DNA from: a virus
Taxonomy: Duplodnaviria > Caudoviricetes
Length of the DNA stretch: 64,000 nucleotides
Direction: 5' to 3' (one strand)
IMG/VR virus record: IMGVR_UViG_3300042673_001351
Span: 1-64,000 of that record
This document shows, in pieces, positions 49,733 through 58,490 of this stretch; positions within the stretch are counted from its first letter, which is position 1, and the number at the start of each line of letters is the position of its first letter. A program made the position numbers and the translations under genes. The notes below the pieces were generated by a model. That model did not search any database and was not told where the DNA came from. It saw nothing but the letters and a program-made list of their open reading frames with translations.

Positions 49733-49754
49733 TGTCAGTCCCCCATGTTAGGAT
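49733..49754 (+). promoter_or_regulatory. PafBC/RecA-NDp-type promoter 1
   Basis: TGTCAG-N10-TAGGAT. Confidence 0.7.
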
Positions 49755-49779
49755 TATAGTATAACAAAATAAAGAATTA

Positions 49780-49833
49780 GAGCGTGAGCCTAGCAAATAA
49801 TCCCGAAAGGGTGAGCCTAGCAAATAACCGCTC
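49780..49833 (+). ncRNA. Candidate structured leader RNA with 17-nt direct repeat
   Basis: GTGAGCCTAGCAAATAA twice, around CCC-GAAA-GGG and closed by GAGCG/CGCTC. Confidence 0.45.
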
Positions 49834-49854
49834 AACCTAACGAAAGGAAATAAA

Positions 49855-49959
49855 ATGAACGATTACCTAGATTACCTAGATGATATCTACGAGGAATTAG
49901 TAGATGAGTTTGGACATGAGGCAGAAGCCGAGTGTGTCCATAATCACACCGCTAAATAA
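49855..49959 (+). CDS. Acidic microprotein (34 aa)
   Basis: AACGAAAGGA RBS; MNDYLDYLDDIYEELVDEFG... Confidence 0.7.
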   Translation: MNDYLDYLDDIYEELVDEFGHEAEAECVHNHTAK

Positions 49960-49977
49960 AGCGTGTCGTGTTGATAA

Positions 49978-49999
49978 TGTCAGTCAGTAATGATAGTCT
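49978..49999 (+). promoter_or_regulatory. PafBC-type promoter 2
   Basis: TGTCAG-N10-TAGTCT. Confidence 0.65.
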
Positions 50000-50036
50000 T
50001 ACCTTAATGAACAACCTAACGAAAGAAGGACAGAAA

Positions 50037-50129
50037 ATGGATAAACTAAACGAGGCACTAGAAGCCTTACAACAAGCAAACAAAGTGTTTGCTGAAATGT
50101 TCGACATAGACGAGAGCGAGGCTAACTAA
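50037..50129 (+). CDS. Acidic microprotein (30 aa)
   Basis: AACGAAAGAAGGA RBS; TAATG overlap with the next ORF. Confidence 0.65.
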   Translation: MDKLNEALEALQQANKVFAEMFDIDESEAN

Positions 50130-50242
50130 TGTTATTTTTTGATTGGGTAGAGGATTATCCTCACATTGTTTTGCCTATCGTGTTAGGCACGATAACTATA
50201 ATTGCTATTGTCGGTGCTATTGTTAGTGGAGGTAATAACTAA
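50129..50242 (+). CDS. Membrane microprotein (37 aa)
   Basis: TAATG coupling on both sides; one hydrophobic helix. Confidence 0.65.
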   Translation: MLFFDWVEDYPHIVLPIVLGTITIIAIVGAIVSGGNN

Positions 50243-50403
50243 TGAAACTAACCTACTCAATTTGGCAAGGCTCTTTACAAAAGGGCACACTAACCGCTAA
50301 GAGCATTAAAGAAATTACTGCTCTAGTTAATGAATTAAACGAGGCAAACCCTCCGTTAAAATTCGAATACCTAATACACAAGATAGAGCAGGTGAATAAC
50401 TAA
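50242..50403 (+). CDS. Hypothetical protein (53 aa)
   Basis: GGAGG RBS; TAATG coupling. Confidence 0.7.
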   Translation: MKLTYSIWQGSLQKGTLTAKSIKEITALVNELNEANPPLKFEYLIHKIEQVNN

Positions 50404-50576
50404 TGATGACTAAATGGGACACTATCCAAGCGGACATAGCAGACGCTTACACCTACTTAGACGAGGCGGAGGTATTGGATAAACACAATACAGAAGCCCT
50501 ATTTGATGAGGACATGATTAGCATGGACGAGGTAATTGAAAATGAATTAACACTAGATTGGGAGGCATACGAATAA
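50403..50576 (+). CDS. Highly acidic small protein (57 aa)
   Basis: TAATG coupling; 18 Asp/Glu versus 2 Lys. Confidence 0.7.
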   Translation: MMTKWDTIQADIADAYTYLDEAEVLDKHNTEALFDEDMISMDEVIENELTLDWEAYE

Positions 50577-50728
50577 TGAACTTAGAATTATTTATAGATA
50601 GCGAATACTTTTCTCTATATATTAACGGGCTATGGCCTAATGGTGTCGGTATAGATATCCCGACATGGCTACTAGTTGGCTCTATTGCTTTTATTTATTC
50701 TATCGTATTACTTAGGAGAGATAAATGA
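50576..50728 (+). CDS. Membrane microprotein (50 aa)
   Basis: GGAGG RBS; TAATG coupling; C-terminal hydrophobic helix. Confidence 0.65.
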   Translation: MNLELFIDSEYFSLYINGLWPNGVGIDIPTWLLVGSIAFIYSIVLLRRDK

Positions 50729-56017: not shown

Positions 56018-56776
56018 ATGCCTAACTGGGTGTATAACACATTAACAATACAAGGTCCAAAGTCTGAGATAGATTTTATCAAAGATAAACTTAACGAGCC
56101 ATTTATGGTATGGCACGATAGTTGGAATTCTGAAACTATGCAAATGGAAGTAACTGAATCTACCTATTCTAATCCTGTCTTTGCATTTTGGAATATACAT
56201 TCTCCATTACAAGACGGTATTACAATGCAAGAATATATTCAACAACCTACACGACTAGGAACAGACACGAGTGCACCTGACTGGTTTGCTAAAGAAGTAG
56301 CACATGCCATGACACAAAAAGATTGGTATTCATGGAATACAACTAACTGGGGAACTAAATGGGATGTTGCAATATCAGACGGAGAGAAGTATCCTGATAC
56401 TGAGTTGCTTGAATATAAATCAGAGGGTGATGATAACTGGTTGGTATATAAATATAATACTGCTTGGTCACCTGCTGTAACTATCTTAACTAAACTAAGT
56501 AATCTTATTCCTAACTCTCTACTAACCCTTGAATTTGAGGAGGAGACAGGTTGGGGTGGCGAATATGAGATTGTCCGTGGTGAAGTTAAAGAAAATCTAG
56601 AATATACCAATATGTGCTATGCCTGCCAATCCCATGACACAATAGATTATTGTGAAGAGGGATGTGGGGAATTCTGTTCATCTTGCAAAGAAGGCTCTTG
56701 GATAGACGAAGAGGCTATGGCGCAATGTCAGACCCATAAGGTATACTTAACCACTACCAAAACGAAAGGAATATAA
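56018..56776 (+). CDS. DUF1281/YubB ferredoxin-like domain protein with Cys-rich tail
   Basis: MPNWVYNTL, WYSWNTTNWGTKWD, YNTAWSP; AACGAAAGGA RBS. Confidence 0.8.
   Translation: MPNWVYNTLTIQGPKSEIDFIKDKLNEPFMVWHDSWNSETMQMEVTESTYSNPVFAFWNIHSPLQDGITMQEYIQQPTRLGTDTSAPDWFAKEVAHAMTQKDWYSWNTTNWGTKWDVAISDGEKYPDTELLEYKSEGDDNWLVYKYNTAWSPAVTILTKLSNLIPNSLLTLEFEEETGWGGEYEIVRGEVKENLEYTNMCYACQSHDTIDYCEEGCGEFCSSCKEGSWIDEEAMAQCQTHKVYLTTTKTKGI
56726..56747 (+). promoter_or_regulatory. PafBC-type promoter 11 (inside the upstream CDS)
   Basis: TGTCAG-N10-TATACT followed by AACGAAAGGA RBS. Confidence 0.7.
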
Positions 56777-57255
56777 TGTTAGACAACTTAGAAACATCAA
56801 TGTCAGTACCTCACGAGTATAACTCTAATCTACTTGTAACCTACAAGAAGATTGCAGGAACTTATGCAGCACCTGAAGCACCTGAATATATTACTCAGAA
56901 AGTAGTTGACTTAGAGTGGGCCCTTGAACAAGGTCGCCGTGCTGATGATTTATACAATGGCCTTAGACTTAAGGTTAATGAGTTAGAAGAACTTCTAGTT
57001 GAATTGTATAATCCTAATTATACAAAAGAGGAAGCGCTTCAACAAATAGCAGAACTGTTTGACTTTGAATTATCAAAGACAGTTACAGTAACTGGAACTA
57101 TTAACTTTGAAGTAACAGTTCAAGTACCACTTGATGAGATTGATAACTTTGATGCTCATTACAAACTCGGAGATGAACTTTCATTAACATCGTATGGCAG
57201 CGAAGTTGAAGTAAATGATTGGTCAATCGAAGATACAAATGTGGATTGGGACTAA
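56776..57255 (+). CDS. Acidic hypothetical protein
   Basis: 159 aa; AACGAAAGGA RBS. Confidence 0.8.
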   Translation: MLDNLETSMSVPHEYNSNLLVTYKKIAGTYAAPEAPEYITQKVVDLEWALEQGRRADDLYNGLRLKVNELEELLVELYNPNYTKEEALQQIAELFDFELSKTVTVTGTINFEVTVQVPLDEIDNFDAHYKLGDELSLTSYGSEVEVNDWSIEDTNVDWD

Positions 57256-57470
57256 TGTACTTTGAACTTACTGCTCCGAACCAGGTAGCCTTTAAGCGGG
57301 CTATCTGGGAAGCGGACATAACTGGATTAGATCCACAAGAAATGGATTCATTGACTTTCAACATTGGAACTGGTAGTATTGAGAAGGTAAGTCGCATTCG
57401 TGATAAATATAATTTAAAAGAAACTTATTTATCTCAATTCGAACCAACTGGATACTCAAGGAGAATATAA
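57255..57470 (+). CDS. Hypothetical protein
   Basis: TAATG coupling gives start MYFELTAP. Confidence 0.7.
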   Translation: MYFELTAPNQVAFKRAIWEADITGLDPQEMDSLTFNIGTGSIEKVSRIRDKYNLKETYLSQFEPTGYSRRI

Positions 57471-57616
57471 TGTCAGATTACAGAGATGGATTTCAAGACG
57501 GGTATAAATTTGCTCGTGAAGAGATCATTGATAAACTAAGAGAAATTGATATCTCTGACATTGACGGGTTCTTATTAGATAAACTATCTGACATGATTGA
57601 AGGTAACAAGATATGA
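57470..57616 (+). CDS. Hypothetical protein (48 aa)
   Basis: AAGGAG RBS; MSDYRDGFQDGY... Confidence 0.7.
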   Translation: MSDYRDGFQDGYKFAREEIIDKLREIDISDIDGFLLDKLSDMIEGNKI

Positions 57617-57804
57617 GCGAATGGATTAAATGTGATGTTTGTCCAGCTCAGGCAATGCACCTTGTTAGAGGAACCACTGGCGAGCTGACATTTTGTGGCC
57701 ACCATTACAATAAAGACAAAGAGGCCCTAGACAAATGGGGCTATGAGATGATAGAATTAAATAAAAAGGAAGAAACACCTCAACTAGAAAAGGCGGAAAT
57801 ATAA
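57613..57804 (+). CDS. Small zinc-finger protein (CxxC...FCGHH, actinobacterial type)
   Basis: CDVCPAQA..GELTFCGHH. Confidence 0.75.
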   Translation: MSEWIKCDVCPAQAMHLVRGTTGELTFCGHHYNKDKEALDKWGYEMIELNKKEETPQLEKAEI

Positions 57805-58211
57805 TGGGAGACAGAGCAAACTTTGGATTCGTCCAACCTAACGGAAACACAATTGTGTTATACGGCCACTGGGCTGGACACAATATGCTTGGAAAACTAG
57901 CAGACGCTGTCATTAAGGCACGTCCTCGCTGGAATGATGGTTCATATGCAACACGTATCGCAATCAGTCAAATGGTTGCAGATGAATGGAATATGGAAAC
58001 TGGATGGGGACTATACGTAAATGAGATTGGCGATAATGAGCACAAGATTGCTATCGTTGATTTTAAGCAACAGACATTTAGTCTTCACGAGTGGGCCCCA
58101 CACAATGACTTAGACAACAAAGTCCTAGGGATGAATAACAATCCAATATTTACAATGGATTTATCAGTCTTCTGCGAGAAGTATGCAATGGAAAACATCC
58201 TAGTCGTCTAG
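57804..58211 (+). CDS. Hypothetical phage protein
   Basis: MGDRANF..LYGHWAG..RW.D.SYATRI. Confidence 0.8.
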   Translation: MGDRANFGFVQPNGNTIVLYGHWAGHNMLGKLADAVIKARPRWNDGSYATRIAISQMVADEWNMETGWGLYVNEIGDNEHKIAIVDFKQQTFSLHEWAPHNDLDNKVLGMNNNPIFTMDLSVFCEKYAMENILVV

Positions 58212-58213
58212 CA

Positions 58214-58222
58214 TGATATAAT
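58214..58222 (+). promoter_or_regulatory. Extended -10 promoter of the candidate sRNA
   Basis: TGA-TATAAT with no TGTCRG element upstream. Confidence 0.65.
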
Positions 58223-58228
58223 ATTAAT

Positions 58229-58358
58229 AGGCCATGGTGCCTATTATATGAAGGGTGCATCTACTCTAGGTGCTAAGTAAAGCAGGTTTTTCCTTTCGTT
58301 GAGGTCCTAGCAGCCCTTCTCTTAACCCCCGTGACTCTAAGCATGGGGGTTTAGCTTT
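58229..58358 (+). ncRNA. Candidate trans-acting sRNA antisense to the shared early RBS
   Basis: No ORF; nested stems; unpaired TTTTTCCTTTCGTTGA; 3' terminator-like hairpin. Confidence 0.65.
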
Positions 58359-58418
58359 GCCCCCAAAAGCGGAGGGTAGCATATGTTGTTTACGGAAGTC
58401 AAATATATTTCCCTGAAA
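58359..58418. repeat. Tripartite element copy F
   Basis: hairpin + GGGT-N12-TTACG-N16-CCCTGAAA. Confidence 0.8.
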
Positions 58419-58468
58419 TCTCAAGCTTTGGACATGTGGTGTGAAACACACCTATATTCTATATACAA

Positions 58469-58490
58469 TGTCGGTGGTCTGTTATATAAT
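58469..58490 (+). promoter_or_regulatory. PafBC-type promoter 12
   Basis: TGTCGG-N10-TATAAT. Confidence 0.8.

Follow-up and report, generated by a model that had tools for sequence, protein, structure and literature searches.

A block of small phage genes carries an array of promoter-like sites

The IMG/VR record IMGVR_UViG_3300042673_001351 is an 82,596-bp sequence, approximately 76% complete, from a tailed phage (Caudoviricetes). The window analyzed herein is the stretch spanning positions 1 to 64,000 of this record. Structural genes occupy the region from 1 to 41 kb, whereas a block of about 30 small genes extends over some 9 kb near the other end of the window. This block contains repeated copies of the sequence TGTCRG-N10-TAnnnT, which had been predicted to be promoters of the type recognized by PafBC, an actinobacterial WYL-domain activator that senses single-stranded DNA (ssDNA). 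Here we examine these sites, their conservation among related phages, and the factors that might read them.

Eleven exact matches to TGTCRG-N10-TAnnnT are present in the window, compared with 0.94 expected from 100 shuffles of the same sequence (standard deviation 1.00, maximum 4), and none of the 100 shuffled sequences reached 11 matches. All eleven exact copies are located on the + strand and within positions 49733 to 58490. A twelfth site, at 52181, carries the variant hexamer TGTCGT, wherein the N10 spacing and a TATAAT -10 element are unchanged. TGTC and the N10 distance between hexamer and TAnnnT are found at 12 of 12 sites, with TGTCRG present at 11 and TGTCGT at one. This confirms the original prediction of twelve + strand sites with constant spacing. 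Its further claim that none precedes structural genes also holds, as no other strict copy was found on either strand of the 82,596-bp record, the structural genes included.

The TGTCRG hexamer alone is not enriched in the window (39 occurrences compared with 32.4 expected), and thus the signal consists of the hexamer joined to a -10 element at a fixed distance. Sites of the sigma-70 type likewise are not enriched in the block (48 compared with 42.1 ± 5.4 expected). At the twelve sites, we did not find the TTGACA-like hexamer 16 to 18 nucleotides (nt) before the -10 that is canonical for sigma-A; partial likeness to a -35 element is seen at some sites only, for example TAGACA at 54729.

The arrangement downstream of the sites also recurs. 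At eight sites, the conserved leader ACGAAAGG begins within 11 to 16 nt and leads into an ATG, and the sites at 49978 and 58469 are followed by the near-variants ACGAAAGAAGG and GCGAAAGG. We take this leader to fit the sequence CCUCCUUUCU with which 16S rRNA ends at its 3′ side in actinobacteria. The site at 52387 has no leader and lies within a long open reading frame (ORF), but an in-frame ATG at 52416 is positioned 7 nt past its -10. In the long ORF this ATG corresponds to residue 12, the exact point at which the match to Pfam GP88 sets in (profile position 2), so that the site is not the false hit inside an ORF that it had resembled. The claim that each site is directly followed by a ribosome-binding site or start codon is therefore correct in substance, for ten sites with a leader or near-variant and for the leaderless site at 52387. 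It requires qualification at 49733, where the leader is 85 nt long, and at 56726, which lies inside the end of an ORF. The coordinates of all sites, along with those of other signals in the block, are given in Table 1.

Table 1. Promoter sites, leaders, and other signals in the gene block (window coordinates; P1 through P12 conform to the motif given in the text, with P5 as the variant)
Feature	Position	Strand	Sequence elements and genes served
P1	49733..49754	+	TGTCAG-N10-TAGGAT; 85-nt leader with tandem repeat, then gene 49855-49959
P2	49978..49999	+	Operon of six small genes, 50037-50922
P3	51108..51129	+	TGTCGGTG-N8-TATAAT; genes 51159-51473
P4	51493..51514	+	TGTCGGTG-N8-TATAAT; genes 51545-52064
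P5	52181..52202	+	Variant TGTCGT, usual spacing, TATAAT, leader; gene 52231-52386
P6	52387..52408	+	Leaderless GP88-family gene, ATG 52416 to end 53135
P7	53351..53372	+	Gene 53396-53665
P8	53667..53688	+	Genes 53712-53852 and 53885-54307
P9	54736..54757	+	DUF932 gene 54786-55793 and tRNA-Asp 55824-55898
P10	55971..55992	+	Gene 56018-56776; weak DUF1281_C likeness, under the Pfam cut-off
P11	56726..56747	+	Within 3′ end of preceding ORF; genes 56776-58211, including DUF7455 at 57613-57804
P12	58469..58490	+	Genes 58515-59280
Shared ribosome-binding leader	49839..59262	+ (11 copies), - (1 copy)	AACGAAAGG
Promoter-like site without -26 box	54340..54368	+	TAGACA-17-TATAAT with TG; before gene 54396-54608
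Extended -10	58214-58222	+	TGATATAAT; then non-coding stretch to 58400 (candidate small RNA)
Perfect sigma-70-type site	59209..59238	+	TTGACA-18-TATAAT; before genes 59273-60409, the last operon of the block, which includes the Lsr2-like mini-protein gene 59711-59851

The array is conserved in related phage loci

Using the DUF932 protein encoded in the block as a query, we identified at least 164 related IMG/VR stretches, and the family counts reported below refer to the best 80 of these (L001 to L080, 1.29 Mb). The motif occurs 1061 times on the gene strand of these loci and five times on the other, and the shared leader shows a similar bias (530 compared with 26). When the spacing was varied from N6 to N15, N10 yielded the 1061 matches, whereas every other value yielded at most 98. 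Hexamers located 10 nt before TAnAAT are most often TGTCAG (604) or TGTCGG (131), with the next commonest occurring 42 times. Five complete relatives (104 to 116 kb) each carry 14 to 18 copies on one strand within approximately 10 to 14 kb and 0 to 2 copies on the other, while a reversed control pattern is found 0 to 3 times per strand.

The site preceding the DUF932 gene allowed conservation to be assessed at a position where orthology is set by the gene and not by the motif. With L032 left out because it contains no upstream DNA, the strict motif is retained just upstream of the DUF932 orthologue in 77 of 79 loci. These include 34 sequence versions with varying spacers, and the two exceptions (TGTCAC and TGACAG) each differ by one base.

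From 815 distinct copies, we derived the family consensus aAA-TGTCAG-T(g/c)(c/g)c...-TG-n-TAtAAT. Position 5 of the hexamer is preferentially A (83%), the -10 element is near consensus, and an extended TG at -15/-14 is present in about 64 to 80% of family copies. The logo of the 815 copies has no -35 signal and carries little information upstream of the hexamer.

The same 815 copies exhibit a preference for a pyrimidine-A step 6 to 7 nt past the -10. Moreover, 90 of the 1061 copies have an ATG or GTG 5 to 8 nt past the -10 that opens an ORF of at least 40 aa, and 34 of these 90 encode GP88 orthologues, which start 6 to 7 nt past the -10 and whose alignments begin at the first residue of both proteins. 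The pyrimidine-A preference and the leaderless starts place transcription initiation where the original prediction had expected it, about 7 nt past the -10, and suggest that the sites are promoters rather than mere words. The geometry, the bias in strand and region, the conservation, and the start-site pattern point to real promoters of one class.

The strength of the -10 element bears on an alternative wherein sigma-A alone fires these promoters by way of the extended -10, while the upstream box binds another host regulator, or PafBC serves only as a modulator or brake. Both the frequent TG at -15/-14 and the near-consensus TAtAAT are in keeping with this possibility, as are the other conserved boxes (CRP-type palindromes and GCGTGTC, described below) that crowd the same regions and thus imply multi-input regulation. 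However, apart from the -10 itself, no feature is conserved as strongly as the -26 hexamer with its exact spacing, and five host-like genomes show the known PafBC arrangement of a PafB/PafC pair and a box before recA (see below). We therefore judge sigma-A acting alone to be an unlikely explanation.

The box is not confined to close relatives. A scan of IMG/VR for the pattern TGTCAGTG-N5-TGN-TATAAT identified at least 141 stretches, of which 80 loci were fetched. Three of these 80 have no tblastn match to this phage or to G001, its closest complete relative, and several more have 2 to 4 weak matches. Of the contigs whose proteins show little or no likeness to those of this phage, L231 carries 13 boxes within 4 kb (1-4022), L237 carries 10, and L278 carries three. 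The dense boxes on such contigs precede tiny genes. In the cultured relatives Karimac, Coruscant, and Wakanda, which are Streptomyces phages, there is no array, and the motif occurs 0, 3, and 1 times, compared with 0, 5, and 0 for the reversed control.

The phage sites have the sequence features of PafBC promoters

PMC8635444 gives the in vivo PafBC consensus as tGTCgg(N10)tA(N3)T, wherein the hexamer is located at -23 to -28 and no -35 element is present. It also describes how the GTC triplet is read by residues R46 and R50 of PafB, and how PafBC inserts between the DNA and domain 4 of sigma-A. According to PMC11804915, PafBC is activated by ssDNA bound at its WYL domains. The phage sites share with these promoters, also termed RecA-NDp, a hexamer with an invariant GTC, its position at -23 to -28, the 10-nt spacing to TAnnnT, and the lack of a -35 element (PMC8635444; PMC11804915). 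The assignment made in the original prediction is borne out at the level of sequence, in that hexamer, spacing, and -10 are identical to the consensus in PMC8635444. Every sequence feature of the PafBC promoter class is present, and judged by sequence the phage sites are members of it. Furthermore, the 10-mer TGTCAGTGGC is located before recA in three of five small actinobacterial genomes and occurs in many copies in the phage relatives.

Several differences from the known PafBC promoters are also apparent. The phage copies form arrays of 12 to 18 on a lytic-type genome, and the genes that they precede are small and of unknown function, not repair genes. They favor A at hexamer position 5 and have a near-consensus -10 with an extended TG, and behind most of them the start is not leaderless but has a Shine-Dalgarno leader.

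Phage genes that respond to a host damage signal are well known from SOS-coupled switches, wherein prophage induction depends on LexA and RecA. Control of the kind considered here would be distinct, because it would involve LexA-independent activation and not the cleavage of a repressor. Other parallels are DriD, BrxR, and CapW, which are described in PMC9186387, PMC9122601, and PMC11662680 as ssDNA-sensing WYL regulators that couple DNA damage or infection to transcription. These are host systems that serve host genes, whereas here phage genes seem to have been put under the control of a regulator of this kind.

The phage is an actinophage with no recognizable regulator other than WhiB

The phage is a siphovirus with a GC content of approximately 36% and a tape measure protein of 2126 aa. 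Its portal is 55 to 59% identical to those of Streptomyces phages (Stanwilliamsviridae), and it carries a WhiB gene (record positions 74951-75289) as well as genes for GP88, DUF932, DUF7455, and an Lsr2-like mini-protein. WhiB, the portal likeness, and these other genes are actinophage hallmarks and identify the virus as an actinophage. No near-identical cultured phage was found when positions 49500-59000 were compared by megablast with the phage collection. This is an uncultured lake phage of actinobacteria and not a mycobacteriophage, and the mycobacterial emphasis of the original prediction is misplaced for a lake phage with 36% GC.

Most proteins of the block have no assigned family. Twenty-six of the 31 scanned lack a Pfam family at E ≤ 0.01, and four have a family at or near this threshold. 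PHROGs families were matched by eight of 33 proteins, all but one of unknown function. The exception is the 46-aa Lsr2-like mini-protein (59711-59851), which resembles the N-terminal part of Lsr2 (PHROG E 5e-8). No regulator was recognized among the 33 proteins compared with PHROGs or the 31 compared with Pfam. The search for a phage WYL protein that had been proposed was carried out, and both the record (0 of 1) and the complete relatives (0 of 5) proved to lack a WYL domain. Sigma70_r2 similarly was absent from the five complete relatives (0 of 5), and no RNA polymerase or sigma factor was seen. G001 adds a DnaE-type polymerase, a primase, DnaB, RecA, and nucleases. Neither an integrase nor a repressor was present among the ORFs scanned, which for G001 comprised 57 of 129 in the Pfam scan, and thus prophage induction is not indicated.

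These inventories are relevant to a second alternative, in which a phage protein of an unrecognized family reads the -26 box and bridges to sigma-A, such that the likeness to the PafBC box reflects convergence or mimicry. Phage T4 provides a precedent, as its middle promoters are subject to ‘sigma appropriation’ by MotA and AsiA. The MotA box is of the TGCTT type and is located at -30. As in the promoters described here, an upstream box replaces the -35 element at a short, fixed distance (about 10 to 12 nt) from a normal -10, and PMC8635444 draws the same parallel for PafBC. The T4 reader is phage-encoded and remodels sigma region 4, whereas the box found here is that of a host activator, and no phage reader was recognized in general Pfam and PHROGs scans, which did not include a search for MotA or AsiA. 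A phage reader would also fit with the many block proteins that lack a known family, and with the absence of the array from cultured Streptomyces relatives, as if it had been acquired with clade-specific genes.

Nevertheless, we regard a phage-encoded reader as improbable. The exact match in hexamer and spacing to a known host box favors a host reader and would otherwise need chance or mimicry. The same is true of the finding that no WYL protein, sigma factor, or other recognizable regulator except WhiB emerged from the scans of the record and complete relatives. The occurrence of this box in dense arrays on contigs that have few or no proteins in common with this phage argues specifically against a lineage-specific phage reader. 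In addition, the gene for such a factor would need another promoter class to be expressed first.

Outside the block, metabolic genes are unusually numerous for a phage (window positions 42646-49531 and 63561-64000, and record positions 62410-71526). These include genes for a cytochrome P450 (43626-45056), a fatty-acid desaturase (48049-48996), and a catalase (record 63561-64829), along with sulfotransferase-like proteins, methyltransferases, a 2OG-Fe(II) oxygenase, a thioredoxin, an APS-kinase-like protein, and an AdoMet decarboxylase.

Plausible hosts carry PafBC and the same box

Freshwater actinobacteria such as members of the Nanopelagicaceae are plausible hosts. PafB homologues are present in 279 of 301 sampled Actinomycetia genomes, a tally that includes seven unpublished genomes. 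Each of five single-contig genomes of 1.3 to 1.5 Mb encodes an adjacent PafB/PafC pair, whose members are the only strong WYL matches; in three of the five there is a weak third WYL match, in a frame of approximately 740 aa. The pair adjoins tatC in G145, where the flank was scanned. One of the five genomes is identical at the PafB/PafC locus to a Candidatus Nanopelagicaceae record, and relatives of this Nanopelagicaceae-type PafB are found in Planktophila, Nanopelagicus, and similar records (at least 591 stretches). Over its full length, the protein can be aligned with PafB in the RNA polymerase-PafBC structure (chain 7p5x_AY, E 4e-39), and the residues R46 and R50 are retained (ERMFERDK aligned with residues 45-52 of 7p5x_AY). 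Because no NCBIfam model names the PafB or PafC homologues, their identity was assigned from the PDB match and gene order.

Upstream of recA, all five of these small genomes carry TTGTC(A/G)GTG-N8-TAnnnT followed by a LexA-type box, TCGAACAGATGTTCG. This two-promoter layout of a PafBC-type box and a LexA box is known from mycobacterial recA. The examination of candidate hosts for pafBC that the original prediction called for showed that plausible lineages carry PafBC and have the same box before recA. In three of the genomes, TGTCRGT-N9-TAnnnT occurs 11, 7, and 11 times, compared with three times each for the control. These low counts suggest that the box marks a small regulon and is not a general promoter form.

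The box copies cluster in one island, with nine of 11 located within 47 kb in G145 (G145:C1:443-490 kb, L108-L110) and seven of 11 within 28 kb in G285 (G285:C1:431-460 kb, L111 and L112). Many of the island boxes have an ATG exactly 7 nt past the -10, consistent with leaderless starts. The genes behind them encode a DpdE/DrmD-like SNF2 helicase, C5 methylases (one of which is followed by a type II restriction enzyme), TPR proteins, a trypsin-like protease, and a CAAX protease, and DruE-like, HEC-06, and NERD-helicase genes are located nearby. A further box copy, together with an SOS box, heads a gene for a LysM protein. This gene content suggests that PafBC controls anti-phage defense in the Nanopelagicaceae-type lineage.

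The presence of the box in such islands provides a rationale for its use by a phage, since a PafBC alarm that raises defenses would also fire the phage genes. An extension of this rationale, which we put forward as speculative, is that phage and host contend over one alarm. PafBC would sense ssDNA from attacked foreign DNA and fire the defense island with its helicase, restriction-modification, and protease genes, while countermeasure or takeover genes would stand behind the 12 to 18 boxes of the phage, so that the host could not separate its defenses from the switching on of the phage. Replicating arrays may also drain PafBC. Another alternative holds that the arrays are chiefly decoys, wherein many high-affinity boxes on the replicating genome would soak up PafBC and thereby blunt the induction of host repair and defense. 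The number of boxes per genome and the occurrence of the same box at defense-island genes agree with this notion. Yet every box has promoter geometry before a gene start, with a leader or a leaderless ATG, and this is unneeded in a decoy. We consider a predominantly decoy role very unlikely.

Three other approaches to host assignment were uninformative. The tRNA-Asp of the phage is 80 to 84% identical (about 81%) to tRNA genes of all five genomes compared and does not discriminate among them. The best match to WhiB (51%) was in the metagenome-assembled genome (MAG) G006, which also holds a phage-like RNR contig and in which the motif is not enriched (9 compared with 14 for the control). A search with RNR retrieved phage-like contigs that were binned into MAGs of many phyla and gave no clue to the host.

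Other conserved elements accompany the promoters

Palindromes of the CRP type (TGTGA-N6-TCACA and near variants) are located upstream of several promoters, with + strand starts at 49660, 50979, 51043, 52123, and 53307. Perfect CRP-type palindromes number 367 in the 1.29 Mb of related loci, where by our own rough estimate chance would presumably account for a few at most. A second, dimeric regulator may therefore act on the block. Another element, GCGTGTC (mostly as GGCGTGTC), is found upstream of the promoters, with copies at 49961, 50926, 51020, 51475, 52164, 53292, and 53336. In the related loci it is present in 420 copies on one strand and 119 on the other, and 99 copies lie 10 to 19 nt before a TGTCRG box. 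In two of the small actinobacterial genomes, the same sequence also follows closely behind the -10 of recA (loci L103 and L104).

The leader of the first promoter contains a tandem repeat, GTGAGCCTAGCAAATAA, of which two copies (49786-49830) lie ahead of the ribosome-binding box. The non-coding stretch that follows the extended -10 at 58214-58222 and reaches 58400 is a candidate antisense small RNA. It includes TTCCTTTCGTT (58290-58300), the exact complement of the ribosome-binding leader shared within the block, and the fold of positions 58222-58400 is modestly better than those of shuffled sequences (z -2.08). Although twelve sites agree with the view that PafBC-type promoters drive the block, other promoter types are also present, at 54340-54368, 58214-58222, and 59209-59238 (Table 1).

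Discussion

We favor a model wherein host PafBC together with sigma-A reads the twelve promoters in response to ssDNA, and we consider this reading probable, though by no means secure. Host RNA polymerase containing sigma-A would recognize the twelve sites with PafBC docked on TGTCRG at -26, in the manner termed ‘sigma adaptation’. The appearance of ssDNA in the infected cell would then lead PafBC to switch on the block, together with host recA and the defense-island genes. We infer from the features described above that the box is read by PafBC and not by some other factor, that ssDNA provides the trigger, and that the phage infects a freshwater actinobacterium, for example a member of the Nanopelagicaceae. 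Expression of the block may be early; both this timing and a role in host takeover are suggested by the small size and novelty of the genes.

Some observations weigh against this model. The cultured Streptomyces relatives have no array, even though their hosts belong to a class that bears PafBC. The near-consensus -10 with its extended TG might fire without an activator, and little ssDNA may be present in the first moments of infection, in which case the term ‘early’ could be wrong. A novel phage DNA-binding protein is possible, given that Pfam covered 57 of the 129 ORFs of G001, and neither the tRNA-Asp nor the WhiB matches pinned down the host. Twelve lake or freshwater RNA runs hold 5 to 11% of the words of the block, and contigs from four RNA runs cover 20 to 22 of 30 block bins at 92 to 99% likeness. 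Such metatranscriptome contigs carry no information on strand and cannot show transcription starts, and libraries of this kind can hold DNA.

Literature searches, mostly of listings and abstracts, found no publication that describes PafBC-type promoters on phage genomes. PMC12848934 cites a 2025 paper in ACS Infect Dis on pafBC and mycobacteriophage resistance.

Existing M. smegmatis pafBC tools, together with the published in vitro system, would allow a direct test of the proposal. These phages recur in lake metagenomes, as indicated by the at least 164 related IMG/VR stretches and the at least 141 stretches with the box, and the bacteria that they probably infect rank with the most common in fresh water. 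If the model is true, then lytic phages place a class of their genes under an ssDNA-sensing WYL activator of the host instead of a factor of their own, and sigma adaptation would extend from DNA repair to the conflict between virus and host.

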